The notes: generated from the letters alone by a model not told the origin. Positions 19,261-63,433 are shown, counted from the stretch's first letter. The stretch: 64,000 bases of DNA from Candidatus Aminicenantes bacterium (GCA_963702005.1 OY969696.1:713680-777679), one strand, 5' to 3'. A program made the numbers and translations.

Positions 19261-19270
19261 GAGGCGGCCG

Positions 19271-20389: not shown

Positions 20390-20413
20390 CGAGAGGCGAA
20401 AAAGGGGACAACC

Positions 20414-22918: not shown

Positions 22919-22925
22919 GGATGCC

Positions 22926-42470: not shown

Positions 42471-44505
42471 TCAGAAGCTCCGCGCGCAGATCCCGCCGCC
42501 CGCGGTCCCGACGTAGATCTTGCGGGCGGCGCCGTCGACCTGGATCGAGTTCACGCTCTTGACCGGCAGGTCGCCGGAGAGGTCCGTCCAGGTCGCCCCC
42601 TTGTCGGCGCTGTGCCAGAGGCCGTTCCAGTTCCCGACAAAAAGCTCGTTCGGATTGAGCTTGTTGACGGCCAGGCAATCGCCGGAATAGGGCGCGTTGG
42701 CGAGCTTGGTCCAGGAGCCGCCGCCGTCCGTGGAGGCGAAAATGCCTTCCCACCCGGTCGCGGCATAGACCGTGGCGGGAGAGCCGCCGGACACGGCCAG
42801 GGCGTCGATCGGGCACCCGGTCGAGGGCGGGCTCAACGAGGTCCAGTTGGCCCCGCCGTCCGTGCTTTTATGCAGGACCGGCGAGCCGGAGGAGGTCGTG
42901 CCGGCGACATAGATCGTCCGGGTATTGGAGGGGTCGAACGCGGCGGCGCAAGCCTGGCTGTTTTCATCGGTCCGAATCCGGACCTGGGTCCAAGTCAGGC
43001 CGCCGTCGGTCGAGATGAAAACGCCCATGTAATTTTTGCCGCCGACCACGATGTATCCCGCCGCCAGGACGCGGTTGGGAACGGCCGGGTCGACGACCAG
43101 GATCAGCCCCTGGCAGCCGGCGCCGGGAAGAAGCTGTTGAAAGTTGGCGCCTCCGTCTACAGACCTGTAGACGCGGGGGGTGCTTCAGCCGTAGGTCGAG
43201 AGATAAACCCGGTTCGGGTCCGCGCTGGGGACGGCCAGGTCGGCGATGTTGTCGCTCCCCAGGAAATCGGGGAGCTTCGTCCAGCTCGCGCAGGCGTTCG
43301 CGCTCTTGAAAACCCCGACCGACGTCGCCGCCGCGTACGCCGTGGCCGGAGCGATCGCCGAGGACGAAGAGCCGGGCATCCGGAACCCCCCGATGTTCGT
43401 CGCCAGGATCCCCGCCTGGGACGGCAGGAAGGTTTTCCCGGCGCTGGTGCTTTTAAAGACCCCCGCCGTCGCGGAGACGTGAACCGTGCTTCCCGAGATC
43501 AAGACCTTCGACGCGAGTCCGGCGAAGCCGGTCCCGCATTTGGTCCAATCCGTTCCGCCGTTCGTGCTCTTCCAGACTTCCTTGGACCCGCCGCCGTACA
43601 CGATGCTGGGATGGACCTTGTTCGAAGGCCAGGGACTCCAGGTAAGCGATATAAGACGGGCTGTTCTGCTTCTTCCAAGTGGTCCCGGAGTTGGCCGATA
43701 TCGCCACCCCCGCTACCGTGTTTTGGTAGGACACCAAGATCCGGGAGGGATTCGAGGGGTCGATGGCGACCGTGTAAGCATAGTTGACTATGGTGTGGAG
43801 ATCGTTCATGAATGCGGGCGTGACGTTCTTCCAGGCCCCCCCGCCGTTCGTGGAGCGGAAGACGCGGGCGCGATAATTCGAGCCGTCGTAGAAGTACCCG
43901 CAGAAGAAAATGGTGGACGGATTCTTGGGGGAGATGGCGATATCGCGGCCGTAGGCGTAGCTCGACGTCGCCTCCATCGTCTTATGGCTCCAGGTTTGGC
44001 CGCCGTTCGTCGTCATGAAGACGGCGAGGCATGTCTTCCAACTGGACGTGTCATAGGTATAACTCCCCGCGACGAAAATGACCTTGGGATTTTGGGGGTT
44101 GATGGCGATCCTCCCGGAATAGCCCTGCCGGTATTGGCCGAACGGAAGCTTCGTGAAGGTCGACCCTTGATCGACCGATTTATAAAGTCCGTCCGAGGCC
44201 AGGATATAGATCGTCCGCGGATTTTTAGGGTCCAGGACGAAATCGTAAGCGTAATCGCCGAGGATGGACTTGAGGGTCCAGCTCTTGCCGTTGTTGACGG
44301 ACCGGTACACCAGCCCGCGCTCGGACACCGCATAAAGCTCGGAGGGCGATTTGAGGTTGCGGGCGATGCCCATGATGTTGCCGCCGGTGGGGCCGAGCTG
44401 GGTCCAGACCGCCGCTTGATCCACAGGGCGGGCGGCGCGCATGCCGGGGCCGCCGATGAGAAGGGCGCCAAGGATTGCCCAGATATAAACGGCCGGTCTT
44501 TTCAT
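42471..44505 (-). pseudogene. BNR/Asp-box repeat beta-propeller protein, paralog D: frameshift near 43450-43600 plus in-frame TGA at 43185-43187
   Basis: Three ORF pieces (43453-44505, 43185-43601, 42471-43049) with a signal peptide and repeated S-x-D-x-G-x-T-W motifs. The last two pieces are in the same frame, separated by one TGA. Confidence 0.6.
43154..43187 (-). other. In-frame TGA plus SECIS-like hairpin (CGUCUACA-GGUC-UGUAGACG) of paralog D
   Basis: The hairpin starts 11 nt 3' of the UGA on the coding strand. The loop is GGUC. It is coded by VYRSVD using the rare codons GUA, AGG and UCU. Confidence 0.6.
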
Positions 44506-44547
44506 TCTCCCTCCTCCGGAAAAATCCGCATTTTCCCTTCTCGGCCA

Positions 44548-44575
44548 TTATAGCGGGGGGTGTCCCGGCGGTCAA
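44548..44575 (-). promoter_or_regulatory. Sigma-70-like promoter of paralog D (TTGACC-N17-TATAAT)
   Basis: The same arrangement is conserved upstream of paralogs A, B and C. Confidence 0.45.
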
Positions 44576-44644
44576 CAGAGGTTGAGGCTCGGCGTCCGAG
44601 CCGCTGGGAGGCGACTGGTCGTCACCCCGGCGCCGGCCCGCTCC

Positions 44645-46666
44645 CTAAAACGTCCGCTTCCAGATGCCTCCACCTTGGGTCCCGACGTAGAGGGTGTGGT
44701 TCGTCGCGTTGAAAACGAGCTGATTTACGTACGGAACGGGCAGTCCCTGGCTGACGTCGGTCCAGGTCAGGCCCCGGTTCTGGCTGTAAAAAACGTTCTG
44801 GTTGTTTCCGACGAACACTTGGTTGGGATTGTTCTTGTTGACGGCCACGGCCCGGAAACCGTAGCTGTATGTTGTGAAGGTGCACTTGGTCCAGGAGGTC
44901 CCGCCGTTCGCACTCCGCCAGAGCTCACTGTTGGTCCCGACATAGACGATATTCGAGTCCTGGGGATCGACGGCGATCGCCTGGGGCGGGTATTGAATCC
45001 CGTTCGTGATCGCGGTCCAGTTGACCCCCCCATCCGCGCTCCTATACACGAGAGCGCTAGAGTTGGAGGTATATCCGCCGACGTAGAGGATGTTCGCGTC
45101 GCCCGGCGCGACCGCCACCACGGTCGATTGGCTGCCCTCTTGGGTGCTGATCCGGATGGGCGTCCAGTTCGTCCCCCCGTCCTTGGAGACGACGATTCCC
45201 ATCGACGTGACGCTCCCTTGTTTGACTGATCCGGTAATGATAAGTTGGCTGAAGTTCTGGGGATTCGCGTAGAGGCTTCCGTATCGGCACTCGTAGAGAT
45301 CGTAAATCTGTTGGAACGTCCGTCCTCCGTCTACAGACCTGTAGACGAATTCGCCCTGCGGTCAGCCGCTGGGCTTGACATAGATGGTATTGGGATTCGT
45401 GGGGTGAACGACGATGCTGGCGACGAGCGTGCTGCCCACGAATGTTCCGCAGGTCGTCCAGGCCGATCCCCCATTGGCCGTCTTAAAGAGGGCATATCCC
45501 GTGATCCCGGCGTAGATGGTGCTCGGCGAAGAAGGCGAGACGCCTAAAGCCGCGATGTTCGAGCCGCGGATGCCGGCGTGGCTGGGATTCCAGGTGGAGC
45601 CGCCGTTCTTGCTCAGGAAAATCCCAACCTGGCTTGCCAGGTGGACATTGGACCCGGCGGCCAGGATTATGCGGCTCTCTCCATGGATGCCGTCGCTGTA
45701 AGCTTTCCAGGTGATCCCGCCGTCCGTGCTCTTGAGGACGCTGTAGACGTAATCGAGCTCGCCTCCGGCATAAAGGATCTTGGAGTTGGCGGAATCGGCC
45801 GTGATGGAGTACACATACGTGATCCCTGGAGTCTGTTGGGCCTTCCAGCTTCCGCCGGCGTTCGTCGTCCGGGCGATGCCGTTGTTGTGGGCCACCCAGG
45901 CTTTTTTCGGGTCGTGGGCGTCTACATAGATGGCGTTACAGGCGGGATAGGTTCCGTCGAAAATCGCGGCGCCGCCGACGCTCGTCCAGGTGCTTCCTCC
46001 GTTCTTCGAAACGTAGGCGCGGCCGGTATCGACGCTGTTCTTATAGTCGTAGCCGCATAGATAAATGTAATTGGGGTTGGCCTTGGCAAAAACGACGTCA
46101 TATCCATAGCCGGAATCGGCCGAGTTCGGGAACCTCTTGACGGTCCAAGACGCGCCGCCGTTCGTCGTTTTAGCGACGGCGATATCGCTTTTGTAGTTCA
46201 CGTTGTCATACCGGTATGACCCGGCGATCATAATGATCTGGGGATTGGCCGGGTGGACGGCGATCCGGCCGTACCAGCCGGTAAATCCGGCCGGGAATGC
46301 GCGAACCGTGAAATTTTTGCCCTTGTCCGTGCTCTTGTGAAGATAGCCGTAGCTGAGGACGTAGATCGTGCTCGGGGTCTTGGGATCGACAGCGAGGTCG
46401 TAGATCGCCTGGGAGACGATGGATTGGCGCGTCCAGCTCGCGCCGCTGTTCGTGGATCTCCAAACCTGACTCGGCCAGCTCGAGCTCGCGGCATAGAGCT
46501 CGGCCGCCGACTTGGGATTCCGGGCCAGGCCGCGGATATCCCCTCCGTAGGGGCCGACCGGGGTCCAGGAACCGGCCCGGTCGGGCCGCTCGATCGGGGC
46601 GGAGCCGCGCCCGAAGAGGAAGACGGCGCACAGGACCGCCAGGATGATGACGACGGCTTTTTTCAT
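44645..46666 (-). CDS. Secreted BNR/Asp-box repeat beta-propeller protein, paralog A; single in-frame TGA at 45362-45364 (candidate selenocysteine or read-through)
   Basis: The N-terminal ORF (signal peptide MKKAVVIILAVLCAV) ends at TGA. The next 53 codons have no stop and read PQGEFVYRSVDGGRTFQQIY, a canonical BNR motif. They are in the same frame as the C-terminal ORF 44645-45202. Confidence 0.65.
45328..45364 (-). other. In-frame TGA plus SECIS-like hairpin (CGUCUACA-GGUC-UGUAGACG) of paralog A
   Basis: Perfect 8-bp stem with GGUC loop, 14 nt 3' of the UGA. Confidence 0.6.
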
Positions 46667-46708
46667 AGGCCCTCCTCCGGGGTTCGAGCTCGTTGCATCC
46701 GTGACCGG

Positions 46709-46738
46709 ATTATAGGCAATTTCCCGCCCGGCGGTCAA
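46709..46738 (-). promoter_or_regulatory. Sigma-70-like promoter of paralog A (TTGACC-N18-TATAAT); RBS GGAGGAGGG before the ATG
   Basis: ttgaccgccgggcgggaaattgcctataat on the coding strand. Confidence 0.45.
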
Positions 46739-46762
46739 TACAAAGGGTTGAAGGGGGGCTGC

Positions 46763-48784
46763 TTAAAACGTCCGCTTCCAGATGCCTCCACCTTGGGTCC
46801 CGACGTAGAGGGTGTGGTTCGTCGCGTTGAAAACGAGCTGGGCTACGTACGGAACGGGCAATCCCTGGCTGACGTCGGTCCAGGTCAGGCCTCGGTTCTG
46901 GCTGTAGAAAACGCCCTGGCTGGACCCGACAAACACCTCGTTGGGGTTGTTGTTGTTGACGGCCACAGCATCGAAATTGTAGGCGTTGGTCGGGAACGTG
47001 CATTTCGTCCATGAGGCCCCGCCGTTCGAACTCCGCCAAACTTCCCAAAAGGTCCCAACATAGACGATGTTCGGATCCTGGGGATCGATGGCGATAGATT
47101 GGGGCACGTATTGGATTCCGTTCGTGACGGAGGTCCAGTCAACCCCTCCGTTCACGCTCTTATAGACAAGCCCGGTATAGGTAGCGCTCTGGCCGCCGAC
47201 ATAGAGGAGGTTAGCGTTGCTGGGCGCGACCGCCGCGACGTTCGATTGGCTGCCGTCCTGGCTGCAGATTTTGACCGGCGTCCAACTCGACCCCCCGTTC
47301 GTCGAGAACACGATTCCCATCGAGGTTACGCCCCCCTGCTTGACCGAGCCCGTGATCAGGAGGAAGTTGATGTTCTGGGGGTTCGCGTAAAGGTTTCCGT
47401 ACCGGCATTCGTAGAGATCGTAAATCTGCTCGAATTTCCGTCCTCCGTCTACAGACCTGTAGACGAATTCGCCCTGGGGTCAGCCGCTGGGCTTGACGTA
47501 GATGGTGTTCGGGTTCGAGGGATGGACGACCACGCTGGCGACGAGATCGCTGCCGTAGAATTCGGTACAGGGCGTCCAGGCGGAACCCCCGTTGACCGTC
47601 TTGAGCAGAGCGTAGCCTTGGATTCCGGTGTAAATCGTGTTCGGCGAGGAAGGGGCGATGGCGAAGGCTTTGATATTTGCCGCCCGGATTCCGTTGTGGC
47701 CGGGGTTCCAGGTCGTGCCGCCGTTCTTGCTCAAGAAGATTCCCGCTTGCGTCGCCTGGTGGACCTTGGAGCCGGCGGCCAATATTTGGCGACATTCTCC
47801 GTAGAGGCCGGTGCTCGAAGCCTTCCAGGCATTACCCCCGTCGGTGCTCTTGAGGCTGCTGTAGACCAAATTGTACTTGCCGCCCGCGTAGAGGATATTC
47901 GGGTTGGAGGAATCGGCCGCGATGGCCGTAACATGCGTGATCTGGGGCGTCTGCTGGGCCTTCCAGCTCCCGCCGGCGTTCGTGGTCCGGGCGATGCCGC
48001 TGTCATGGCCCACCCAGGCTTTTTTCGGGTCGCGGGGATCGACGTGAATGGAGTAGCAGGCAGGGTAGCTGTTGTTGAAGACGGCCGACGAGCCGACGCT
48101 CGCCCAGGTGCTCCCGCCGTTCTTGGAAACGAAGACCCGCGCGGCTGTGACGCTGTTTTTCTGATCATACCCACAGAGATAAATGTAATTGGGGTTGCTT
48201 TTGGCGAATACGATGCCGCGGCCATAACCATAGTCGGTCAGATTGGAAAGTCTTTTGAGCGTCCAGGTCGCGCCGCCGTTCGTCGTCTTGGCGACGGCGA
48301 TTTCGGAATGCCAATCGGCGGTGTTGTAATAATAAGACCCGACGACCATGATAATCTTGGGATTAGCCGGGTGGACGGCGATCCGGCCGTTGTAGGACTG
48401 GAAATCGTCCGGGAACCGATGGTTCGAGAAGGTCTTGCCTTTATCCGTGCTCGTGTAGAGATAACTTTCGCTGAGGAGGTAAATCGTGCTCGGGGTCTTG
48501 GGGTCGATGGCGAGGTCGTAAATCCATTGCATGACGATCGATTGGCGCGTCCAGCTGGCGCCGCTGTTCGTGGATCTCCAAATCTGGCTCGGAGAACTCG
48601 AGCTCACGGCGTAGAGTTCGGCCGCCGACTTGGGATTCCGGGCCAGGCCTTGGATATCCCCTCCGTAGGGGCCGAGCGGGGTCCAGGAACCAGCCCGGTC
48701 GGGCCTGTCCGCCGGGCCGGGGCTGCGCCCGAATAGAAAGACGGCGCACAGGACCGCCAGGATGATGACGACGGCTTTTTTCAT
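46763..48784 (-). CDS. Secreted BNR/Asp-box repeat beta-propeller protein, paralog B; in-frame TGA at ~47480-47482
   Basis: Same architecture as paralog A, about 85% identical. The N-terminal and C-terminal ORFs are in the same frame, 53 codons apart. Confidence 0.65.
47445..47482 (-). other. In-frame TGA plus SECIS-like hairpin of paralog B
   Basis: cctccgtctacagacctgta on the plus strand gives the coding-strand GUCUACA-GGUC-UGUAGAC hairpin. The exact base coordinates are ±1. Confidence 0.55.
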
Positions 48785-48826
48785 GGGCCCTCCTCCGGGG
48801 TTCGAGCTCGTTGCATCCGCGACGGG

Positions 48827-48856
48827 ATTATAGGCAATTTCCCGGCCGGCGGTCAA
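48827..48856 (-). promoter_or_regulatory. Sigma-70-like promoter of paralog B
   Basis: ttgaccgccggccgggaaattgcctataat. Confidence 0.45.
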
Positions 48857-48963
48857 GAAACCGCGGTAAAAAGGCCATCCTCAGAACTTCCTCCACCAGA
48901 TCCCCGCCCCCTCGGTCGCGGCAAAAACTCTCCGGCCGGCCGCGGAATCGGCGTCAGCGCCGA

Positions 48964-51000
48964 TTAAAAATCCCTCCGCAGAATGCCGCCCCCCGATGTT
49001 CCGACGTAGACCTGGCGGGCGGCGCCGTCGATCTCTATCGATGTCACGCCCCTGACGGGAAGACCCTCCGAAATGTCCGTCCAGGTTGCTCCTTTGTCGT
49101 TGCTGTAGGAAAAGAAGCTCCAGTTCCCCGCGAATATTTCGTTTGGGTTGGACTCATTGATGGCGATGCAATTGCATCCCCAGGGGCCGTTCTCGAGCTT
49201 GGTCCAGGTGTCCCCGCCGTTCGTGGAGACGAAAATACCCGCCCAGGAGGTTCCCAGATAGATCGTGCCCGAGACGCTCGGATCTACGGCGATGGCCTCG
49301 ATCCTGGCTGAGGACGAGGGAGGAGTCAGCTCGGTCCAGCTCGCGCCCCCGTCCGTGCTCTTGTGCAGGGCCGGGGCATAGGAGGATTTATAGCCGGCGA
49401 CATAGATCGTATTCCTGTTCGAAGGGTCGAACGCCGCGACTTCCAGGCAGCTGCCCGTATCGTTCCTGATCTTGATTTGTTTCCAATCGGATCCGCCGTC
49501 CGTCGACAGGAAAATCCCCATTACATATTGACTGCCGCTGACGACATATCCTCCCGCTATGATGTGCTTCGGATCCGCGGGATCGGTCAGGAGGATGAGT
49601 CCTTGGCAGCCGGCTCCGGGCAGAAGTTGCTTAAAGCTTTTGCCTCCGTCTACGGAACTGTAGACGCGGGGGTTGCTTCAGCCGTAGGTCGAGAGGTAGA
49701 CCCTGTTCGGGTCCGCGTTCGGAACGGCGAGATGAGCGATGCTGTCGCTTCCCGCGAAATTGCCGAGCTTCGCCCAGCTCCTGAAGCCGTTCTCGGTTCT
49801 AAAGATGCCGTAATTGGTGACCGCGGCATAGGCTGTGTTTGCGGAGGCGGCGCTCGCCGATGAGCGGGGATATTGGAAATCCGCTATTTCGGCGGCTTGA
49901 ATTCCCGCGTGGGAGGCTTTAAAAGAGCGGCCCGCGTTCGTGCTCTTGAAGACGCCCGCCGTGGACGTGACCTGAAGCGTATTCCCCGAGGCAATGATCC
50001 TCGATACGGTGCCGCAGAGGACGTTCGAGAATGGCGTCCAATGATGTCCGCCGTCCTTGCTTTGATAGATCGTTTTATAGGCTCCTCCGTAGAGGACATT
50101 GGGATTGGTTTTGTCGAGGGAAAGGGACTGGATATTATAAAGGCTCTGAGGATTCGTCTGGTTCTGCCAACTGACCCCGGCGTCGGCCGTAAAGGCCACT
50201 CCGCCATAATACGGGACGAACAATCTCGCGGCGTTCGAGGGGTCGACGGCGACGGCGTAGGCCTGGCCGTAAAATCCCGAGCCCGCGTTCATGAAGGCGG
50301 GAGTGATGTCCTTCCAGGTCCCGCCCGTATTCGTGGAGCGGTAGATGCGGGCGATGCAGCCCGTGCCGGCCCAATAATAGCCGCAGAAATAGACCGTGGA
50401 CGGAGCCTGGGCGGGAATGACGATGTCGCGCGCGCAGCCCGAATCCGAAGTCGTGTCCATCGTCTTCTGGGTCCAGCTTTTGCCTCCGTTCGTCGATTTG
50501 AAGACGGCCAGGCACGATTTGTTGGCGCTTGAATTGGTGGTATAGCTTCCCGAAACGAAGACGATATTCGGATTTTGGGGGTGGACCGCGATTCGGCCCA
50601 GAAAGGCGTATCGATGGCCGCCGAGCGGGAATTTCGTGAATGTTGTTCCTCTATCGGCGGACTTATAGAACGCTTCCGAGGATAGGACATAGACTGTCCG
50701 CGGATTCTTCGGGTCCAGCGCTATATCGGAAGCATCGATGTCGAGGTGGGACTGGCGTGTCCAACTCCCGCAGCCGTCGGCTGACCGGAAGACTTGCCCC
50801 TGCTTGGTTAGGACGTATAGTTCGCTCGGAGATTTCGGGTGGCGCGCGATGGAGATGATATTTCCGCCGTTCGGCCCGAGTCCGGTCCAGACCGAAGCGG
50901 CCTCCGGAGACGACGATGGAGAGGGCTCCGGTCCGCGAAGGCGGCCGTAGAGCACGGCGGCGCAGAAGACGGCTAAGATGACCCCCATGGCTTTTTTCAT
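48964..51000 (-). CDS. Secreted BNR/Asp-box repeat beta-propeller protein, paralog C; in-frame TGA at 49678-49680
   Basis: N-terminal ORF (MKKAMGVILAVFCAAVLYG signal peptide) and C-terminal ORF in the same frame. The read-through sequence is SNPRVYSSVDGGKSF. Confidence 0.65.
49647..49680 (-). other. In-frame TGA plus SECIS-like hairpin of paralog C (CGUCUAC-AGUUCC-GUAGACG; the loop differs from GGUC)
   Basis: Hairpin 11 nt 3' of the UGA; 7-bp stem conserved; loop variant. Confidence 0.5.
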
Positions 51001-51041
51001 GGACCCTCCGTCGGAAGCCGCGTTCCTTTTATCCTGGCTGA

Positions 51042-51071
51042 ATTATAGGGAATTCTCCGCCCGGCGGTCAA
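51042..51071 (-). promoter_or_regulatory. Sigma-70-like promoter of paralog C
   Basis: ttgaccgccgggcggagaattccctataat. Confidence 0.45.
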
Positions 51072-51140
51072 GAAACCGCGGAAAAAAGCCGTTCTCTCCT
51101 CTTGACAAGCCGCGGGGGTTTCAATAACTTAGGTAAAGCC

Positions 51141-51707
51141 ATGAGAACCAAGACAGTCCTATCCACCCTGTTCTTTTTCGCGGTTTTCTGCCTTTTGTCC
51201 TCGGCCCTCGCCTCGGCCCAGCTCGAAGTCCCCAAGGTCGTGACCGCGCGGGCCGTCTTGTCCAAGAGCGCAGTCCACGCCGGTGAGACGGTCAAAATCG
51301 CCGTCGTCCTCAAGATCGAGAAGGGCTGGCACATCAACTCGGATGATCCCGGCGACGAGTTCCTGTTCCCCTCGTCCCTCGCCCTTGACGAGGTCGCCGG
51401 CTTCGAGGTCAAGGCTTTGGCCTTCCCCAAGCCCAAGCAGGCCAAGTTCGAGTACTCCGACTTCGAGCTCCGCGTCTACGAAGACGAGGCCGTCGTGGGG
51501 GCGCTCCTCCAGGTCGCGGAGAGCGTTAAAGCCGGCGCCTACAGCCTGACGGGAGTGTTCAAGTACCAGGCCTGCAACAATACGTCGTGCATTATGCCCC
51601 AGGACCTCCGCCTCGAGATCCCGGTCGAGGTCGTGGCGGCGGGCGTCGAGACCAAGGACGTCGAGCCCGACCTCTTCGCCAAGATCGAATTCAAGGACAA
51701 AAGCTGA
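51141..51707 (+). CDS. Exported DsbD-N-terminal (alpha-domain)-like protein with C-x4-C pair
   Basis: Signal peptide. KYQACNNTSCIMPQ resembles the redox Cys pair region of the DsbD alpha / thiol:disulfide interchange N-terminal domain. Confidence 0.4.
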   Translation: MRTKTVLSTLFFFAVFCLLSSALASAQLEVPKVVTARAVLSKSAVHAGETVKIAVVLKIEKGWHINSDDPGDEFLFPSSLALDEVAGFEVKALAFPKPKQAKFEYSDFELRVYEDEAVVGALLQVAESVKAGAYSLTGVFKYQACNNTSCIMPQDLRLEIPVEVVAAGVETKDVEPDLFAKIEFKDKS

Positions 51708-51753
51708 GGCGCGGGCCGCGATCGGAGGCTCGGTCGGCTCCGAACGGAGACGC

Positions 51754-53163
51754 ATGAAAGAATCTCTTTTTCGGCTGATCCCATCTGTGGACGCCCTCCT
51801 CAATCATCCGGAGGCGCGCCGGCTCGCCGAGGCGTACGGGCGGCCCTTGGCCTTGGACGCCGTCCGCGACGAGCTCGAGGCGGTCCGGGCCGAAATCCAA
51901 ACGGCCGGCGCCGCATCATCCTTGGCCGAGAAAGACCTTGCCCCGGAGGCCTTGCTCGACCGAGTCCGGGCGCGGCTCGAGCGGAAGCTCGCCCCCTCGC
52001 TGGGACGCACGATCAACGCGACCGGGATCGTCATCCATACCGGGCTGGGGCGGGCCGTCCTGGCTCCCGAGGCGCGGGAGGCCCTGGCGCGCGTGTCCCA
52101 AGGATACTCGCAGCTCGCCGTGGATCTTGAGACAGGTCAGCGCGGCCATCGCGACGTCCATTACGCCTCCCTTCTCCGCGAGCTGACCGGCGCCGAGGCC
52201 GGTTTCGCCGTCAACAACAACGCCGCGGCGACCGTCCTCCTTCTCAACACCCTGGCCAAAGGCAAGGAGGTCATCCTCTCGCGCGGCCAGCTTGTCGAGA
52301 TCGGGGGTTCGTTCCGGATGCCCGACGTCATGGAGACGTCGGGGGCCGTCCTGCGCGAGGTCGGGACGACCAACAAGACCCATCTCCGCGACTACGAGGC
52401 GGCGATCTCGGACCGGACCGGCATCCTCCTTCGCGTCCACCACTCGAACTACCGGATCATGGGCTTCGCCGAGGAGCCGGGGATCGAGGAGCTGGTCGAG
52501 CTCGGCCGCAAGCACGGCCTCCCCGTCGTCGACGATATCGGAAGCGGGGCGCTGGTTGACCTCAAAGATTACGACCTCGAGACCGAGCCACTCGTCCAGC
52601 GGAGCGTCCGGGCCGGCGCCGACGCCGTCTGCTTCTCGGGCGACAAGCTCATCGGCGGGCCCCAGTCGGGGATCATCGTCGGCAGGGCCAAGGTCGTCGG
52701 GCGCGTCAAGAAAAACCCGCTGGCCCGCGCTTTCCGGATCGGGAAGCTGACCGCGGCCGCCCTCGAAGCGACCCTCAAGCTCTTCCTGGACCCGGACCGG
52801 CTGAGGGACCGGCATCCCGTCTACCGGATGCTGGGGCTGGACGCGAAGGAGATCGAACGGCGGGCGCGCGCCGCGTCGGATACGCTGGCGCTCGGCCTGG
52901 CCGGGCGGGCCCGCGTTTCGGTCGTAGAGGACCGGTCCCAGGTCGGAAGCGGCTCGGTCCCGGTTGAGACCCTCCCGACCTTCGTCCTCAAAATCGAATC
53001 CGCGTCTCTTCCGGCCGAGGAGCTGGCCCGCCGGCTGCGGCGCGGCGCCCCGCCCGTCTTCGGCCGCGTCCACAAGGACGCGCTCCTTCTCGACTTTCGG
53101 ACCGTCTTCCCCGAAGAGGACGGCATCGTCATCGACGCCGTCCGGGCGGCCGTCGAACCTTAA
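51754..53163 (+). CDS. selA: L-seryl-tRNA(Sec) selenium transferase (selenocysteine synthase)
   Basis: [18 protein letters not shown] matches the SelA PLP-lysine motif SGDKLLGGPQAGII. 469 aa. Confidence 0.85.
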
Positions 53164-53178
53164 GGGAGAGAACCGGCC

Positions 53179-54384
53179 ATGGTCGACCTCGAAAAGCGCC
53201 GCCGGATCATGGGGCGCTCCATCAAGCTCGGGCACTGCATCTGCAACCCCAAGGACCCCTGTCCCTGCGACCTGTTCAAGCGGAAGAACGTCTGCCTCTG
53301 CGCGGGCGAGCGCGAAGAGGAGGCGGCCGAGGACGTCGCCCTGACCAAGCTCGTCGAGAACGCGGGCTGCGCCTCCAAGGTCTCCCAGGAATTTCTCAAA
53401 CAGGCCCTCGAGGGGCTGCCCGCCGTCTTCGACCCGCGGGTGCTCGTCAGCTCCTCGACTTGCGACGACGCCGGGATCTTCAAGCTCAACAATACGACCG
53501 CGCTCGTCCAGACGGTCGACGTCTTCTCGCCCTGCGTCGACGACCCCTACGTCTTCGGCCAGATCGCCGCGGCCAACTCCGTGAGCGACGTCTATGCCAT
53601 GGGCGGAAAACCCCTGACGGCCCTGTCCATTATCGGATTCCCCTCGGACCGGCTCTCGCCCCGGATCATGAACAAGATGCTCCAGGGCGGAATCGACAAG
53701 CTCGGCGAGGCCGGGGTCCCCGTCCTAGGCGGCCACAGCATCAAGGACGCCGAAGTCAAATTTGGGTTCGCCGTCACCGGGGTCGTCCGGCCCGATCGCA
53801 TCCTGACCAACGACAAGGCCCGGCCCGGGAACGTCCTTGTCCTGACCAAGCCGATCGGGACGGGGCTGGCCTGCTTCGCCCAACAGCTCGGGAAGGCGGA
53901 CGCGGCGCTCCTCGAGGCGACCGCCCGCTCCATGACCGAGCTCAACGGCCCCGCCGCCGAGGAGGCCGTCAGAGCCGGCGTGCGGGCCGCGACCGACGTG
54001 ACCGGATTCGGTCTCCTCGGCCACTTGGCCGAGATGGCTGTCCAGAGCCGGGTCACGGCCGAAATCTGGGCCGAGGAAGTGCCCCTGTTCAAGGGCGTCC
54101 TCGACCTCGCCCGCAAGGGGGTCGTCTCGGGCGCCGTCGAGCGGAACCGGGAATACGCGATGCGCTTCGTGACCAAGGCCCCGGACGTCGGCGAAGAGTG
54201 GGAGGCGGTCCTCCTCGATCCCCAGACCTCGGGCGGTCTTCTTCTTGCCGTTTCCCGGGCGCGCGCGGCCGGGCTCCTCAAGAGGCTCGCGGCGCGGGGG
54301 ATCGCGTCGGCGCGGATCATCGGGCGCATCGCAGAGTCGTCCGAGGGAGCGATCCGTGTCCGACTCCGGCCGGAGGGTTCTTAA
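53179..54384 (+). CDS. selD: Selenide, water dikinase (selenophosphate synthetase), Cys-type, with a Cys-rich ~45-aa N-terminal extension
   Basis: [11 protein letters not shown] corresponds to the SelD active-site (G)C/U motif. PurM-like body (DDAGIF...GGHSI...). The extra N-terminus is [26 protein letters not shown]. Confidence 0.85.
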
Positions 54385-54395
54385 GGGGAGAGGTC

Positions 54396-56319
54396 ATGGC
54401 CGGGCTCGACAAAGACCACGTCATCTTCGGCACGGCCGGCCACATCGACCACGGCAAGAGCTCGCTGGTCAAGGCCCTGACCGGGACCGATCCCGACACG
54501 CTTCCTGAAGAAGAAGCTCCGGGGGATGACGATCGAGCTCGGGTTCGTATTCCTGGACCTCCCCGACTACGAGAAGCAGATCGTCTTCATCGACGTCCCC
54601 GGCCACGAGCGGTTCGTCAAGACGATGGCGGCCGGGGCCTCGAACATCGACGCCGCCCTCCTGGTCATCGCCGCCGACGAGGGCGTATCGGTCCAAACCC
54701 GCGAGCACTTCGACATCCTCCGTCTCCTCGACGTCCCGCTCGGGATGGTCGTCCTGACCAAGGCCGACCTGGTCGACGCGGACCGGATGGCCGAAGTCCG
54801 CGGCGACGTCGTCCGTTTCGTCGCGGGCTCCTTCCTCGAGGGCGCTCCCCTTCTGGCCGTCTCGTCCGTGACCGGCGCCGGGATCCCCGAGCTCAAAGCG
54901 GCCCTGGTTGAGATGGGGCGGAAAGTGCGGCGGCGGAGCGACACGGGCTTCTTCCGGATGCCGGTCGACCGCGTCTTCACCATCCAGGGCTTCGGCACGG
55001 TCGTGGCGGGAACGGTCCTGGGCGGCGCGGTCGGCGTCGGCGACCGGATCGAGGTTTTTCCCGATCGGCTTCCGGCCCGGGTCCGGGGCGTTCAAGTCCA
55101 CGGCCGCGGCGCCGAGCGGAGCGGGATCGGGACACGGACGGCCCTCAACCTGATGGACGTCAAGAAGGAGGATCTGCGGCGGGGACAATGCGTCGCCGCG
55201 GCCGGCAGCCTGACGCCGACCAACCGGCTCGACACGGAGCTTCTCTTGCTGGCCGACGCCGGCAAGGAGCTCAAGCACCGCGAGCGGGTCCGCCTCCACG
55301 TCGGGACGGACGAGGTCATCGCCCGAGTCGTCCTTCTCGACCGGGCCGCGGTCCAGCCGGGCGAGAAGGGCTTTGTCCAGTTCGTCCTAGAGGCGCCGAC
55401 CGTGGCGCTTCCCGGCGACCGGTTCGTCATCCGGACCTTCTCGCCGCTGATGACGATCGGAGGAGGCCGGGTCCTCGACCCGACGCCGGGCCGGCACAAA
55501 CGGTTCGACGATCAGGTCATCCAGGGGTTGGGCCGGCTCGAAGGGAGCCTCGACGAGGTCGTCGAACAGCTTTTAGTCAAGGCCCGTTTCGCGCCCCAAT
55601 CTCTGAGCGAGCTGGAGTTGAGCCTGGGCGGCCGCGCCAAGGAGGTCAAGGAATCCGTCGCCGCGCTCGTCGCGGCGGGGAAGACCGTCGCCGTCCCGTT
55701 CGAGAAGGAGGAGCGCTACCTTCACGCCGGCGCCGCGGCCGAGCTCGCCGGGAGGCTCGTCGGACTCGTCAAGGACTACTTCGAGAAGTTCCCCCACAAG
55801 CTGTCGATGCCCCTCGGCGACCTCCGCTCCCAGTTCCTGAAGCTGAGCGAGGCGGCCGTCTTCCGGAAACTCCTGGAGGAGCGGGCGGCCCAAGGCGCCT
55901 TGGACGCCCAGGGGACCGAGGTCCGCCTCCCCGAGCGCGGCGTTCGGATGACGGCCCGCGAGCAGGAACTGGCCCGCCGGATCGAGGAGGCCTATCTCAA
56001 GGCCGGCTACGACAGTCCGCTCGATGACGAGCTGTGCCGGACGTTGGGCGCCGAGCCGCCCCTGTTCGAGAAGGTCCTGTTCAGCCTCTACGACCAGAAA
56101 AAGCTGATCCGTCTCAACCCCAAGGTCACCTACCACGTCGATACGGTCGCCAGCATGAAGGCGCTCGTCCAGGAGCACCTCAAACGGAAAGGGGGCATCA
56201 CGATCGCGGAGCTCCGGGATACGATCAAGCTTTCGCGCAAGTACGCGCAGGCCGTCCTCGAGTATTTCGACCGGGTCGGGTTGACCCGGCGCGTCGAGGA
56301 CCGCCATGTGCTAAAATAG
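54396..56319 (+). CDS. selB: Selenocysteine-specific elongation factor SelB, with an apparent +1 frameshift at the GAAGAAGAAG run (~54505-54520)
   Basis: Frame 0 from ATG 54396 reads [39 protein letters not shown] (SelB G1 motif). Frame 1 from 54514 reads [15 protein letters not shown]...DVPGHERF and carries the remaining G-motifs and the C-terminal winged-helix SECIS-binding domains. Confidence 0.8.
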
Positions 56320-56331
56320 ACGACGACCCGC

Positions 56332-56427
56332 GGGAGGGTATAGGTTCCGGTGGGCCTTCTGGACTTCAAATCCAGCACGGGGCCGTGAAACGTCCCGGGT
56401 GGGTTCAACTCCCACACCTTCCCGCCA
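56332..56427 (+). tRNA. selC: tRNA-Sec (selC), anticodon TCA
   Basis: 96 nt. 8-bp acceptor stem (GGGAGGGU/ACCUUCCC, one G·U). Anticodon loop CUUCAAA. Long extra arm. T-loop GGGTTCAACTCCCAC. CCA encoded. Lies 12 nt after the selB stop. Confidence 0.85.
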
Positions 56428-56455
56428 CAGCCTCTCTCAGGGGGTAGGGGGGAGC

Positions 56456-56860
56456 TCATCCGGCCAGAAAACGGGCCGGGGACAGGGCCGTGTCGGGGAA
56501 GCTCTTGAGGAGGGCCTTGTCCGTCGTGACCAGGCGGACGTCCAGTCCCCGGGCGAGCGCGACGAACTCGCAGTCGTAGGCGGAGCATTCCGATCCGGCC
56601 GCCAGGCTCAACACGTCGAAGGAATCCACGGCGAACTCGTTGCCCTTCATCAGGGACTCAGCTTCCTTCATAATCCGGGCCGCGTCATCCAGCCCGAAGA
56701 ATCTCTTTCCGAGGCAGGCGGCCAGGACGCTCCGGAATTCGCTCCGCCATAGAGGGGGAGCCGCCCAGATCGGATCCTTGCGCAAAACCTTTTCGGCCGC
56801 GCCGCTGTGCTCCCCTTTGATGAACAGATAGGCGACCAGGTTCGTGTCGACGGCGATCAC
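56456..56860 (-). CDS. vapC: PIN-domain toxin VapC
   Basis: MIAVDTNLVAYLF... PIN acidic residues. 134 aa. Overlaps the upstream antitoxin gene by 4 nt. Confidence 0.75.
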   Translation of the reverse strand: MIAVDTNLVAYLFIKGEHSGAAEKVLRKDPIWAAPPLWRSEFRSVLAACLGKRFFGLDDAARIMKEAESLMKGNEFAVDSFDVLSLAAGSECSAYDCEFVALARGLDVRLVTTDKALLKSFPDTALSPARFLAG

Positions 56861-57102
56861 GGGCGCCCCCGTCGCTTGGCCCGGTCGATAAAGTCTTGGT
56901 CCAGGACGCGGCCGGCGGTTTTATTCCTAAGGACCCGTGCTCTGGCCAGGACATCGTCCGGCTCCAGGCGGCGGGCGGTCAAGGTCTCCTCGAAGATCGA
57001 GAGGATTTCGCCGTTGATGCTCCGGCGGTTCCGACCCGCCCGGGCCCTGATCTTGTCGAACAGCTCCTGGGGGATATTCTTGACGGTGAAGTTCGCTGGC
57101 AT
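56857..57102 (-). CDS. vapB: Antitoxin (ribbon-helix-helix/Arc-like, VapB/FitA-type)
   Basis: MPANFTVKNIPQELFDKIRARA, typical of the RHH antitoxin N-terminus. Coupled to vapC. Confidence 0.65.
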   Translation of the reverse strand: MPANFTVKNIPQELFDKIRARAGRNRRSINGEILSIFEETLTARRLEPDDVLARARVLRNKTAGRVLDQDFIDRAKRRGRP

Positions 57103-57223
57103 CGCTCCGGACCGTTGGTTGTAATCTGGTTCCATTATGGTTCTTTCAAGACTAAAAGTCAATACGGATCTCCAGCGGTTGTCGATCTCCGGGAGATGTC
57201 CTCTTCAGGAATGACGCTTCGAG

Positions 57224-58585
57224 TCAGGGGGCCGTCTCGCCGCCAAGGTAGCTTCCGACGATCTCCCGCCCCGCCCGCATCAGCTCGTGGATCCAGGAGT
57301 AGGCGAAGCGGCCGCCGCGGCCGGCGAGCCTCAGGTTGCCGAACCGCCCCAAGTAGGAGAGGACGGTCTCGACGTTCTTCGCGCTCTCCCTCTCCAGGAT
57401 GGGATAGGCATGAGAGAGCCGGCTGACCTCGGCGTCGATCGGATCGCCGCTTCCGAGCCAGCCGATATTGCGGAGGAGCGACGCCGTGCGCTCGACCAGG
57501 GACCCGTCCCCTGAATTCCAAATTTCGTCCCCCCGCTGGCAGGGGATCTCGGCGACGAGCGAAGTCCTGCCGGCGGGCGCCATGCGCGCGCTCCGGTTCT
57601 TCGGTTCATAGACCCGCGTGAACGGGAATTCTTTGTCCGGGAAATAAACGGTCGCCGCCTTCGTCACGGAATCGCAGCCGAGAAACAGGGCGACCAGGAC
57701 GAGATCCCTGAAGCGCAAGAGAGAGGCGCTCCGCAGGACTCCGTCGGGCGGCCGGGGCGCCATCATCCGGATGAATTCGGGGAGCGGGAGGGAGCTTATA
57801 AACTCGTCGGCTTGGACGGTTGCGCCGCCCCCGGTTTCGACGGCCATAATCCGTACGCCGTCGTGGATGACCCGCGTCACGGGAGCGTTTGTCCGGATTC
57901 GCTCCTTTCCGCAGAATTCGACCAGACGCTCGGCGAGGGCGCCGATACCCGGACGCGGATAATAAAAAGAGCCGTCGACGTGCTTGGTGCCCGCCTTCCG
58001 GCCCAGGAAGGCCTCGATCAGGACGGTGCCAAGGGTCAGCCCGTTCATGCGCCGGCCGGAGACCTCGGGAGACAGCTGCCGGCAGGGGACGCCCCAAAGC
58101 TTCTCGGAATAATTCAACAGGAAGCGCTCGCTGATCGTGTCGCCGTACTTGTTCCGGGCGAACGACTCGAAGTCGTCGCTCCGCCGGGCGGCTTTGAGCC
58201 GGCCGGACATGACCTGGACCCCGGATGAAAGGAAGGCCGCGGGACCCAGGCTCCTCATCAAGTTGAGCGGCAGGAAGGGGAAGTCGATCAGGATCCCCCG
58301 CCGGTAGATCTTGCTGGGGACGTGGATCATTTCCAGCTCTCCGTCAAGCAGGGATCGAATCTCCGCCGTCGCTACGGGGTCCTTGTCGTGAATGCGGTGC
58401 GCCCCCGTGTCGTACAGGAATTCCGTATGCTTCAGGGTCCGGGCGTTTCCCCCGCAGCGATCGCGGGCTTCGAGGACGATGAAGGGCAGTCCATTCTTCC
58501 TGGCGTAAAAGGCCGCCGACAGTCCGGCGACTCCGCCGCCCAAGATGGCGATCAGCCCCGGCCTTTGTCTCCGTCCGTCCTGCAT
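57224..58585 (-). CDS. FAD-dependent oxidoreductase (amine oxidase/protoporphyrinogen oxidase-like)
   Basis: Rossmann motif IAILGGGVAGLSAAFYA...VLEARDRCGG. 453 aa. Confidence 0.65.
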   Translation of the reverse strand: MQDGRRQRPGLIAILGGGVAGLSAAFYARKNGLPFIVLEARDRCGGNARTLKHTEFLYDTGAHRIHDKDPVATAEIRSLLDGELEMIHVPSKIYRRGILIDFPFLPLNLMRSLGPAAFLSSGVQVMSGRLKAARRSDDFESFARNKYGDTISERFLLNYSEKLWGVPCRQLSPEVSGRRMNGLTLGTVLIEAFLGRKAGTKHVDGSFYYPRPGIGALAERLVEFCGKERIRTNAPVTRVIHDGVRIMAVETGGGATVQADEFISSLPLPEFIRMMAPRPPDGVLRSASLLRFRDLVLVALFLGCDSVTKAATVYFPDKEFPFTRVYEPKNRSARMAPAGRTSLVAEIPCQRGDEIWNSGDGSLVERTASLLRNIGWLGSGDPIDAEVSRLSHAYPILERESAKNVETVLSYLGRFGNLRLAGRGGRFAYSWIHELMRAGREIVGSYLGGETAP

Positions 58586-58688
58586 TGTCGCCCCGCAGCT
58601 CCCTTGCTTGGGACGCCTTGCGCTCGTTCGTTTGACAATAGATGATAGACGGCCCGCGGCGAGTTGTCAAACGCGTCCCGGACTCAGC

Positions 58689-61154
58689 TTATCGTATGGT
58701 CACGGTCGCGGGCGGGCCCTCGCGGCCCGTTTCCGGATCGACCGCGACAAGCCGGTACGTGTAGGCCTTGGTCTTGTCCACGCCGCGCTCCCGATACTCG
58801 AATGTCGCCGCGTCGAGCGAAGCGACGAGGCGCGGCGTCGTCCCCTCGACCAGGTAGAGCCGGTAGGTCAGCCCGGCGTCGTTGGCAGGATTCCGCCGCC
58901 AGTTCAGGACGTTGACGTACTCGACGAAGAGGAGCGAGCGGTTTTCTTTCTTCGTGCCTTTGAAGTCGAGCGGTTCGTAGATGGTCCGCTGGAATTCGGC
59001 CCGGACGGCCAGGTCGCGGTCGACGGTGACGGTCAAGGGATTCGTCGTCCCCGATGCGTCTCCGCTCCAACCCATGAAATGATAGTTCGAGGCCGCCGTC
59101 GCCGTGATGGTCACTTGACTTCCCGGGCTATGTTTATAGGTTCCGGGAGCGGGCGTCGTCGTGCCGCCCGAGGTCGCGCTGATGACGAGGGCGTACTGGC
59201 CGCCCGGCCGGATTTGGCAGAGGCCTCCGCCCGGGGTCGCGGCGACGAGCGTGCCGGTCCCCTTGACGAAGTCGAGGGCGCTGACCGTTTTCACGATCAG
59301 GCCCAGGCTGTAATCGGACCAGGAACTCCCGAAATCCACGCTCTTCCGGACGCCGGCCCAGCCGCCCGCGTAAACCTGGTTGGGGAGGGCCGGATTGACC
59401 GCGATGGCCGTCGTCGAGGCGGTCAGGCAATGGGTCCAGGTCGCGCCGGAGTCCTCGCTGCGGAAGACGCCGTCGTCGGACGCGGCGTAAATACGGAAGG
59501 GCGAGACGGGATCGAGGACGAGGGCGGTGATGGGAGCCGAAAATACGTTGGTCCCCAGCCCCGTCCAGGTTTCGCCTCCGTCCGATGTCCGGCAAACCGA
59601 GCCCAGGCTGTTCTGAGTGCCTCCGACATAGATGATCTGCTCGTTCGTAGGATGCACCGCGATGGCGCAGACCATCCCGGGATCGGGCAGGAGCTTGGAC
59701 GCCCAATTGGCCCCTCCATCCGTCGAGATATACAAGGTGACATTGCTGCCCGGCGGACTGCCTCCCGCGTAAAGATGATCGAAGTTCTGGGAATGAACGA
59801 CCAGAACATCGAGCTGGCCCTGCTGCAACAGGCTCGTCCAGCTGTTGCCTCCATCTACAGACCTGTAGATGTAGTCTCCGGACCCTCAGCCCTGGCCGGG
59901 CGCGATCATATAAACGGTCCGGGGGTTGCCGGGATCGACGGCCGCGATATAACCCTGATCGTCGCAGCTGTAAAAATAGGGGAGGAGGGACCAGGTCCGG
60001 CCGAAGCTGTCGCTCCGATAGAATCCGCAGTTGGAAACATTGGCATAAAGGACGTTGGGGTAAGAGGCCGGTACATAGAAGGACGGGACCCGGCAGGCCC
60101 GAACCCCGGTTTGACTGGCCGCCCAGGTCGCGCCCGCGTCCGTGCTGCGGTAGACTCCGGCGTCCGAGCCGAAGAAAACCGAGCTTCCCGCCACGGCCAT
60201 GCGGCGGCAGTCGCCGAGAAGACCCGTTTCGGCGGACGTCCAGTCGATGCCGCCGTCCGTGCTCTTGTAGACCCTTTTCTGATAGCCGGCATAGAGGACG
60301 GAGGAATTCGCCGGGTCGATGGCCAGCCCGTAAGCGCAGCTGGTGTTGGCGCTGCTCTGCCAGGTCTGTCCCGAGTCCGAGGAGCGATAGACGCCCCCTT
60401 CGGTCGCGGCGAAGACCCGGGAGGGATTGTTCGGATCCGTTGCCAGGTCGTAGATCTGGGTTGAGAGCCCGCCCGTGATGTCTTGCCAGGAATCGCCGCC
60501 GTTCGTCGTCCGGTAGACGAAGAATTTAGCCGTCGTGGCGGTCCGGTAAATCCCGCTGACATAAATGACGGCCGGATTCCCGAAATTGACGCAGAGGCTG
60601 TGGCTCTCGGCGAGATCCGCGCCGGGCGAGATTCGCTTGGACGTCCAGGTTTGGCCGCCGTCCGTCGTGCGGGCTAATCCGACCGAGGCCGTCTCGGACG
60701 TTATCTGGCCGAGGATGAACAGGCTGTCGGGATCGCTGGGATGGGCGGCCAGCCGTTCGAAGCTGGTGAAGCCGCGCGGATTCGTGAGCTGCGTCCAGGA
60801 CGAGCCGCCGTTTCGGGATTTGAAAAGGGAGAGCCAGCTCATGGCATAGAGGCCGCCGCTTCCCGGAGGGCCGAAGGCGAGGTCCGTGATGGGATCATTG
60901 AATAACCCGATCCTCTTCCAGGTTTTGCCTTCGTTCGCGCTCCGGTAGACCTGGGCCGGCGTCGAATCGAAGACGGCCATGAGATCGTTGGCGTTCGCGG
61001 GATTCACGGCCAGGTCGCGCAGGCCGCCGCCGTCGGGACCGATCGATTTCCAAGCGGGGTTGTCCGCCCCGGCCGGCCGCGGCCGGGTTGGAGCGGCGGG
61101 AGGGCCGAGGATGAGCGCGGCTATCAGGATCGAGAATCCAATTCCTTTTTTCAT
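58689..61154 (-). CDS. Secreted BNR/Asp-box repeat beta-propeller protein, paralog E; in-frame TGA at ~59886-59888
   Basis: N-terminal ORF (signal peptide MKKGIGFSILIAALILG) and C-terminal ORF 58689-59828 in the same frame, 19 codons apart. Read-through reads GSGDYIYRSVDGGNSW. Confidence 0.65.
59853..59888 (-). other. In-frame TGA plus SECIS-like hairpin of paralog E (AUCUACA-GGUC-UGUAGAU)
   Basis: 7-bp stem with GGUC loop, 14 nt 3' of the UGA. Coordinates ±1. Confidence 0.55.
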
Positions 61155-61371
61155 AAAAACACCCTCCGCCTGGAATCAGCAGGGTCCGAATCTGATTCCC
61201 GATTATTTTATATAGGAGGGCGGTCGGGGAGTCAACCTTTCGACACCCATAGCCGTTTCCGGCTTAGTATGAGTGCTGCAAGGCTGCTCCCCGGCCCCGG
61301 ATTGATTTGTGGAAGCTTTTCTGGTAAACAAGGGAGACAGGAACCGACATCGCGGGAAGGAGGTAGGGCTC

Positions 61372-63410: not shown

Positions 63411-63433
63411 TGACAAAGTGTAGGTTTGACCCT
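63411..63433. repeat. REP-like element, copy 4 (partial palindrome)
   Basis: tgacaaagtgtaggtttgaccct. Confidence 0.6.

Follow-up and report, generated by a model that had tools for sequence, protein, structure and literature searches.

The stretch of DNA analysed here (hereafter the window) covers 64 kb of a Candidatus Aminicenantes bacterium (GCA_963702005.1 OY969696.1:713680-777679; positions are counted from its first letter) and holds a family of genes for BNR/Asp-box proteins, each with an in-frame UGA codon. A tblastn search with one copy against the window, by which the paralogs were defined, found five of them, D, A, B, C and E, all on the minus strand, i.e., an array of paralogous same-strand genes (C, B, A, D, and E further along) on an Aminicenantes chromosome. 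The genes selA, selD, selB and selC sit inside the cluster, between C and E (51754-56427). Paralogs A (44645..46666) and B (46763..48784) have 673 codons each, with the UGA as codon 435, while C (48964..51000) has 678 codons with the UGA as codon 441, and E (58689..61154) has 821 codons with the UGA as codon 423 and a C-terminal Flg_new_2 domain (InlB B-repeat). Paralog D (42471..44505) has 677 codons, with the UGA as codon 440, after removal of one extra A near 43620 (GAACAAGG, region 43600-43640, minus strand); it reads TTCGAACAAGGTCC, and TTCGACAAGGTCC restores ...LAFDKVHPSIVY..., matching C. Paralog D is either a young frameshifted pseudogene, whose promoter, Shine-Dalgarno (SD) site, UGA and downstream hairpin are intact, or the product of an assembly indel. 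The genome has at least six paralogs, since a truncated one (P0043) lies on the same contig (4.31 Mb) as the five of the window. The assignment to Aminicenantes agrees with PurD of the window, which shares 93% identity with proteins from Candidatus Aminicenantes, and with the related contig L003.

In-frame UGA codons and the downstream hairpin

Exactly one in-frame TGA occurs in each paralog, and it falls in the same alignment column in 5/5 (A 45362..45364, B 47480-47482, C 49678-49680, D 43185-43187, E 59886-59888, minus strand). The surrounding residues read ..YVKPSG*PQGEFVYRSVDGG.. in A and B, ..YLSTYG*S(N/T)PRVY(S/R)SVDGG.. in C and D, and ..APGQG*GSGDYIYRSVDGG.. in E. Downstream of the TGA, the reading frame, the bias in G+C content at third codon positions (GC3) and the Asp-box repeats all persist over 238-398 codons. 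Global reassignment of TGA (genetic code 4 or 25) was rejected, because TGA otherwise serves as an ordinary stop more often than TAA or TAG in the window, ending about two-thirds of the called open reading frames (ORFs), and only the five BNR genes continue across it. The same codon recurs far beyond the window. Among 23 distinct sequences with 30-70% amino acid identity, taken from the window and loci L001, L002, L081-L089, L161, L163 and L164 and spanning three phyla, the interrupting stop is always TGA and never TAA or TAG; the WOR-3 (L001) and Fermentibacteraceae (L002) members both keep it.

Annotation pipelines all truncate these propeller genes at the UGA. Of the 120 top database homologues, 37 are annotated as 414-462-aa proteins ending at exactly the Gly that precedes it, and the proteins of at least 18 clusters (50% identity) likewise stop at the UGA position, which together with the top homologues gives a range of 414-483 aa. 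Cys stands at the aligned column securely in two full-length homologues (P0022 and P0025) and, in a third (P0034), only in a gapped, less certain region of one alignment; the remaining 23 of the 26 full-length non-Sec homologues have D, T, A, E, G, S or N there or a shorter loop. Exchange of selenocysteine (Sec) for Cys, a usual mark of a selenoprotein family, is therefore only weakly represented, and the Sec machinery (selA, selB, selD, tRNA-Sec) is present.

A hairpin, (C)GUCUACA-GGUC-UGUAGAC(G), with a stem of 8-10 bp, lies about 14-18 nt after the UGA. We read it as a probable selenocysteine insertion sequence (SECIS). Its core GTCTACAGGTCTGTAGAC lies at 45329..45346 in A, 47447-47464 in B and 43155-43172 in D, with equivalents at 49648-49665 in C (loop AGTTCC) and 59853-59870 in E (ATCTAC..GTAGAT), all on the minus strand. 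The motif has exactly five matches in the window, one per paralog, compared to 0.02 expected. All 19 aligned sequences can form the 8-bp stem, with one exception at the loop-closing pair (18/19), a G-C pair is replaced by A-U through a compensatory double change in E and in the L164 sequence, and the folding energy is -12.5 to -15.2 kcal/mol. In 18 full-length genes, the modal codon has a mean fraction of 0.67 over 124 columns with a conserved residue, and the only invariant codons in these columns are the TGA, the hairpin codons for V (GTC), R (AGG) and V (GTA), and one Ile codon; the shares within codon families in these genes are 13% for AGG, 8% for TCT and 7% for GTA. These rare codons of the hairpin are unchanged in more than 20 homologues. 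The stem pairing, the compensatory change and the frozen rare codons point to selection on the RNA structure itself.

The functional 17-nt SECIS of E. coli is ggttgcaggtctgcacc, and the hairpin core CAGGUCUG is identical to that of the E. coli element (PMC3834832). Bacterial SECIS elements have been described (PMC1088965) as stable stem-loops that directly follow the UGA and have G in a small apical loop, and the hairpins of the array have this form. The WOR-3 and Fermentibacteria relatives carry a different hairpin further downstream, CAGACGG-(C/A)GG(G/U)U-CCGUCUG.

The TGAs could instead be genuine stops, making these loci split genes, pseudogenes or genes for a 434-aa N-terminal protein, with occasional hairpin-stimulated near-cognate read-through and no Sec. 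The public calls of 414-483 aa, the want of Cys at the site in most full-length homologues and the frameshift in D, a sign of some decay in the array, agree with such a reading. We nevertheless hold it to be extremely improbable, as it would leave unexplained why only TGA is found in 23 sequences across three phyla, why frame, GC3 bias and Asp-boxes are kept downstream, and why synonymous sites are frozen in a hairpin whose loop is the SelB-binding core of fdhF; the 434-aa product would also end within blade 9 of a 14-blade fold, and selA, selB, selC and selD are adjacent.

Paralog A terminates in TAG, B, C and E in TAA and D in TGA; these probable selenoprotein genes may avoid a second UGA as their terminal stop. 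In a distant BNR gene at about position 4259 (plus strand) of L139, the frame is interrupted at a comparable place within the blades by a TAG (..HPNNPNIL*VGSVSGGVWKSTNAGASW..), which may be a pseudogene mutation, an error or another recoding event.

Selenocysteine machinery

The sel genes form a plus-strand block. Selenocysteine synthase is encoded by selA (51754..53163; PF03841, E = 1e-142) and selenophosphate synthetase, in its Cys form, by selD (53179..54384; TIGR00476, 364 bits). They are followed by selB (54526..56319), encoding the Sec-specific elongation factor with GTP_EFTU, SelB beta-barrel, and SelB winged-helix domains 2 and 3, and by selC (56332..56427), the tRNA-Sec with anticodon UCA, which was detected by ARAGORN and by Rfam RF01852 (73.8 bits against a gathering score of 47). 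The Cys form of SelD has the motif NAGCASK, and the protein carries an unusual Cys-rich N-terminal extension of about 50 aa (53179-53340, plus strand), the TIGR00476 match beginning after it at residue 55.

Protein fold and the predicted selenocysteine site

All paralogs begin with an N-terminal signal peptide (MKK and a hydrophobic stretch), the Fermentibacteria relative ends in a type IX secretion system (T9SS) sorting domain, and E ends in its Flg_new_2 domain. The description of these proteins as secreted in the earlier note is reasonable in view of the predicted signal peptides and of the T9SS tail in the relative. A lipoprotein signal at the conserved Cys13 was considered and rejected, since the preceding residues A-V-L-C do not fit a lipobox.

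The fold was modelled with AlphaFold2 (AF2) on the Cys homologue P0022 as a stand-in for the window proteins, which gave 14 blades with pLDDT 91 and pTM 0.89. The best Foldseek matches to this model were GH74 xyloglucanases, with TM scores of 0.61-0.65 (best about 0.64), E = 1e-26 and 16-18% identity. Paralog A has 13 Asp-boxes (S-x-D-x-G-x-T-W at blade spacing), and the homologues match Pfam PF02012, PF15902 and PF14870. According to the model, the proteins are GH74-like 14-blade tandem BNR/Asp-box beta-propellers. The tandem 7+7-blade fold of GH74 is recovered, and the N-terminal catalytic Asp of these enzymes is not conserved. Replacement of the C-domain catalytic Asp of GH74 by Sec was also considered and set aside, blade counting placing the Sec in blade 9 and not in blade 8. 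The family model NF045728 (F510_1955 family glycosylhydrolase) scored 183 bits against a cutoff of 175; this score is summed over five repeat stretches on a model of 246 positions and reflects repeat similarity.

The Sec-equivalent residue in P0022 is C448, in the loop that connects strand 441-445 with strand 451-456, and the Sec would accordingly occupy the B-C loop, between the second and third strands, of blade 9. A candidate partner Cys is present in all 19 full-length Sec proteins. In 14 of these 19, it stands at U+25, compared to 2/26 of the non-Sec homologues (Fisher p = 6e-6, uncorrected for phylogeny). This Cys is characteristic of types A-D (residues 435 and 460 in A) and comes with a 3-residue insertion that is missing from the non-Sec homologues. 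Four E-type proteins have a Cys at U-23 instead (residues 423 and about 400 in E), and the Fermentibacteria member (L002, 4230) has UGSC.

Promoters and ribosome-binding sites

The claim of the earlier note that every paralog carries a TTGACC-N17/18-TATAAT promoter of its own and a strong ribosome-binding site was confirmed. In our scan for near-consensus sigma-70-type hexamers, the sites of A-D matched 11 of the 12 positions and that of E matched 10/12. The 30-mer TTGACCGCCGGGCGGGAAATTGCCTATAAT that it had seen recurring upstream of A, B and C was found on the minus strand upstream of all three, with 0, 1 and 3 mismatches, respectively, and 0 occurrences expected in shuffles; D has a variant of it and E a weaker one, also as claimed. 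The putative promoters of A (46709..46738), B (48827..48856) and C (51042..51071) have the form TTGACC-N18-TATAAT, the mismatches in C being all in the spacer, while D has TTGACC-N17-TATAAT (44547..44575, also aligned with A-C) and E has a weaker promoter-like site, TTGACT-N17-TATAAA (61207..61235), all on the minus strand. D and A-C have in common only TTGACCGCCGGG and TATAAT. The -10 hexamer ends 41-42 nt before the ATG in A-D (42 nt in A) and 52 nt before it in E in the TATAAA reading.

The SD site of A, GGAGGAGGG, lies at 46670..46678, with equivalents at 48788-48796 in B and 44509-44517 in D, and C and E have GGAGGG (51004-51009 and 61162-61167, respectively; minus strand throughout). Its 3' end is 3 nt from the ATG in A-D and 7 nt in E. 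GGAGG or better precedes just 9/41 of the other, crudely called genes of the window.

Since A, B and C are paralogous duplicates, their common 30-mer counts as one observation and not as three. Independent support for the promoters comes from D, E and the orthologous loci, which keep the hexamers and their spacing. Of 19 related BNR genes on other contigs (L003, L081-L089 and L161), 14 have retained this architecture, which makes 19/24 together with the five genes of the window. The orthologous sites have TTGAC[CG] or TTGATC, spacers of N17-18 (N19 in one) and 37-43 nt to the ATG, the -10 hexamer is TATAAT in 12/14, and the spacers have diverged; a fragment with 76% identity in the Aminicenantes contig L003 has the same promoter. 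Such phylogenetic footprinting supports the view that the sites of A-E are real promoters. In the window as a whole, 14 sigma-70 sites matched at 10/12 or better, compared to 1.0 +/- 0.9 in first-order Markov simulations (about 14-fold), and seven at 11/12 or better, compared to 0.15; four of these seven are the promoters of A-D. The near-consensus sites lie almost all directly upstream of genes, tRNA-Pro included. Their enrichment and placement indicate that the host uses canonical sigma-70 promoters and that the scan is a specific one in this sequence.

The spacers raise the question of regulation. A block resembling GGAATTCC lies directly upstream of the -10 in A (46715-46724), B (48833-48842) and C (51048-51057; all minus strand), reading GGAAATTGCC in A and B, GAGAATTCCC in C and GGAATTCCC, GAAATTCCC or GGAATTCGC in orthologues. 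If it were an operator, the paralogs would form one regulon, perhaps controlled by selenium or redox state, and would not be constitutively 'highly expressed'. This would be compatible with self-promoted selenoprotein genes and would refine that explanation. The near-palindromic GAATT core is kept in A, B, C, L003, L081, L082, L083, L084 and L085 while other spacer positions vary, and B and C are also 88% identical upstream of the -35, both of which speak for an operator. Yet the conservation could stem from common ancestry within the A/B/C-type lineage; moreover, the motif is missing from D, E and several orthologues, and no regulator gene is evident adjoining the array. We therefore regard an operator as unlikely.

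Hairpins are also found in the 5' untranslated regions (5'UTRs) just upstream of the SD sites of E (GGAAUCAG...CUGAUUCC, 8 bp, 61170-61200, minus strand) and D (GGAAAAU-GCGG-AUUUUCC, 44520-44545, minus strand); they could be mRNA-stabilising or regulatory.

Expression and evolution of the copies

The earlier note further described the paralogs as independently expressed. This stands insofar as each has its own promoter and SD site and lacks support insofar as it implies insulated units, the copies being closely spaced and no canonical or convincing terminators having been found between them in the window. The distance from a stop codon to the following -35 is 24 nt between B and A and 18 nt between E and the gene after it, and the stop codon of D is about 40 nt from the next gene. 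Tandem copies further downstream on related contigs in some cases lack a promoter altogether and follow after short spacers. Because no terminators separate the copies, we favour read-through combined with internal promoters, i.e., promoters that most likely add to transcription from upstream, over insulated units, which seem less likely.

A and B are 92-95% identical over the promoter, 5'UTR and signal peptide and 95-97% identical at the 3' end, with only 62-80% in the middle, and their synonymous divergence (dS), which is 0.6-1.5 mid-gene, drops to 0.16 (5' end) and 0.28 (3' end). The high identity and low dS of the ends next to a diverged middle point to gene conversion between A and B. The recurring 30-mer might then be a mere by-product of tandem duplication and gene conversion, C-B-A-D and the downstream genes forming one polycistron transcribed from the promoter of C and the internal copies being relics. 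The missing terminators, the 24 nt between B and the promoter of A, the converted 5' regions and the promoterless tandem copies elsewhere all speak for this. Relics, however, would lose their hexamers as fast as their spacers, whereas D and E have diverged in spacer and flanks and yet keep hexamers and spacing, the hexamers and the distance to the ATG have persisted in 14 genes of other organisms despite drifting spacers, and such sites are about 14-fold over-represented in the window and nearly always upstream of genes. A polycistron with relic promoters is thus quite improbable in our opinion.

The picture of a family under diversification found no support in the analysis of substitution rates. 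The ratio of nonsynonymous to synonymous rates (dN/dS) is 0.27 for A-B and 0.38 for C-D, ranging from 0.27 to 0.6 among the paralogs, and no 60-codon window exceeds 0.5; positive or diversifying selection left no sign at the gene level or in these windows. The copies had also been said to differ mainly in loops, which is true of insertions and deletions, as these concentrate there, and not of substitutions, identity being 41.7% in strand columns and 43.0% in non-strand columns.

Neighbouring genes

Two thiol-redox genes adjoin the paralogs. A gene for a secreted protein with a DsbD_N domain (51141..51707, plus strand; Pfam PF11412, E = 3e-10) is divergent from C and lies just upstream of selA, and a gene for a ResA/TlpA-like thioredoxin (WCVPC) fused to DUF6029 (61309..63354, plus strand) is divergent from E. 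The E-type paralog of L163 has the same neighbourhood of redoxin, DUF6029, amine oxidase and selB, and L161 and L162 have the array in common with the window, together with downstream Mit_KHE1-like, YtxH, M20 peptidase and ComEC genes. DUF6029 is a putative outer-membrane domain, and a second redoxin, with WCGPC (63433-64000, minus strand), runs off the end of the window.

Between tRNA-Sec and a gene for an amine-oxidase-like flavoprotein lies a pair of genes for a PIN-domain toxin and an RHH (FitA/Arc-like) antitoxin (56456-57162, minus strand), with a TTGACT-N17-CATAAT site of its own at 57134-57162. A type IV pilus or type II secretion system (T2SS) cluster, with PilB-, PilT- and PilC-like ATPase and platform genes, and a sigma-54-dependent response regulator gene, at 17536-21616 and 22815-24335 (plus strand), are ordinary chromosomal context.

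Discussion

We consider it highly likely that the array consists of GH74-like propeller paralogs that contain Sec, with UGA read via a SECIS, and that these are driven by independently startable sigma-70 promoters. Each paralog would be able to start transcription and translation from its own promoter and SD site, the promoters adding to read-through across the copies, and SelB with Sec-tRNA(Sec) would read the hairpin-followed UGA as Sec. The UGA/SECIS feature, which the earlier note passed over, changes what the strong expression signals drive. The decoding system is the standard bacterial one and the promoters and SD sites are themselves textbook examples, so that the promoter finding alone is ordinary and the interest lies in the genes that are driven. 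The promoters mark genes that appear built for strong expression; speculatively, strong promoters and SD sites would fit a need for many ribosomes to pass through an inefficient recoding event.

Several observations weigh against this interpretation or limit it. Promoter activity, promoter strength and the extent of read-through are all read from the sequence, and the promoter similarity of A, B and C is partly due to common descent and gene conversion. The folding z-scores of the hairpins are modest (-1.4 to -2.3) in a GC-rich context, covariation is confined to one or two pairs of an almost invariant hairpin, and Rfam at gathering and permissive E-value thresholds placed no SECIS family on the hairpins, which is explained by Rfam having no model that scores such short elements. 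Only 3 of the 26 non-Sec homologues have Cys at the site, which is unusual for a catalytic Sec. The proximity of Sec and Cys and the location of the Sec in a loop are deduced from strand order in a model, and D is frameshifted.

The function of the Sec is most economically explained by an extracytoplasmic redox site, in which Sec and the nearby Cys would form a selenenylsulfide, or by a soft-metal-binding site. This hypothesis is based on the co-occurring Cys and on the adjoining DsbD_N and ResA-like genes, also found in L163, whose products would possibly keep the Sec site reduced.

Prokaryotic selenoprotein inventories listed 87 families in 2022 (PMC9312934) and 119 families in May 2026 (PMC13188914). 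Table 1 of either has no BNR, Asp-box, propeller, GH74 or Ycf48 entry, a scan with NCBIfam release 20 gave only F510_1955, Ycf48 and BamI models and no dedicated selenoprotein model, and our literature search found no paper linking BNR or Asp-box proteins with Sec. On balance, we are inclined to see here an uncatalogued selenoprotein family of exported GH74-like tandem propellers in Aminicenantes, WOR-3 and Fermentibacteria, with a blade-9 Sec and a co-evolving Cys, and with at least six paralogs in this genome, five of them around sel and thiol-redox genes. If they are selenoproteins, hundreds of split or truncated calls in metagenome-assembled genomes of these three groups would be corrected, the prokaryotic selenoproteome would gain a family that is neither thioredoxin-fold nor cytoplasmic, and selenium use would be tied to what abundant bacteria of sediments and digesters do outside the cell. 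It would also follow that the lineage may keep the Sec trait chiefly for these propellers and not for formate dehydrogenase or enzymes with a thioredoxin fold, and that Sec-dependent chemistry of the selenenylsulfide or soft-metal kind is met for the first time on a propeller scaffold outside the cytoplasm. The compact, nearly invariant SECIS (CGUCUACAGGUCUGUAGACG) inside an Asp-box would then be an example of mutual constraint between an RNA signal and a protein motif. The promoters, for their part, are useful as an empirical source of the sigma-70 consensus and of the usual 5'UTR length in an uncultured phylum.

Comparison with known systems

The expression signals resemble the canonical bacterial sigma-70 promoter and SD site in the -35 TTGACC (5/6), the 17-18-nt spacer and, in A-D, the -10 TATAAT (6/6), and differ in that the N18 spacer is one above the optimum, an extended -10 TG is missing, and a GAATT block is present in A/B/C and orthologues. 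The hairpin resembles the SECIS of E. coli fdhF (minimal element GGUUGCAGGUCUGCACC) as a coding-sequence hairpin just 3' of the UGA with the 8-nt core CAGGUCUG and a GGUC apical loop closed by A-U and C-G, and the SelB proteins of both systems have winged-helix domains. The loop G lies at 22-23 from the U of the UGA in fdhF and at 26-27 (A, B, E) or 23-24 (C, D) here; the stem here is a perfect one of 8-10 bp with no bulged U, and the hairpin encodes the first Asp-box residues (V-Y-R-S-V-D).

The catalytic pair of GH74 enzymes consists of two Asp residues, one in each propeller. The GH74 xyloglucanases (PDB 7KN8, 5FKQ, 2CN3) are, like the proteins described here, secreted tandem seven-bladed BNR/Asp-box propellers, but their N-terminal catalytic Asp ('YARAD-IGG', blade 1) is not conserved here, where A has SSSWPSQ and C has TKQGQ, and their equivalent loop contains neither Sec nor Cys. 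The propellers of Ycf48/HCF136 and sortilin-Vps10, whose names are given to these genes in databases, have the Asp-box signature in common with them. Ycf48, however, has one 7-blade propeller in about 330 aa, its NCBIfam model scores 47 bits here against a cutoff of 326, and the window offers no photosystem context. Exported selenoproteins are already known, and they share with the present family the standard UGA/SECIS decoding and, often, a position near thiol-redox genes. None of them has the BNR/Asp-box beta-propeller fold, and the family described here is set apart by a distant partner Cys (U+25 or U-23) in place of UxxC or CxxU, the UGSC of the Fermentibacteria member excepted, by the Sec in a blade loop, and by its expansion to at least six paralogs in one genome.

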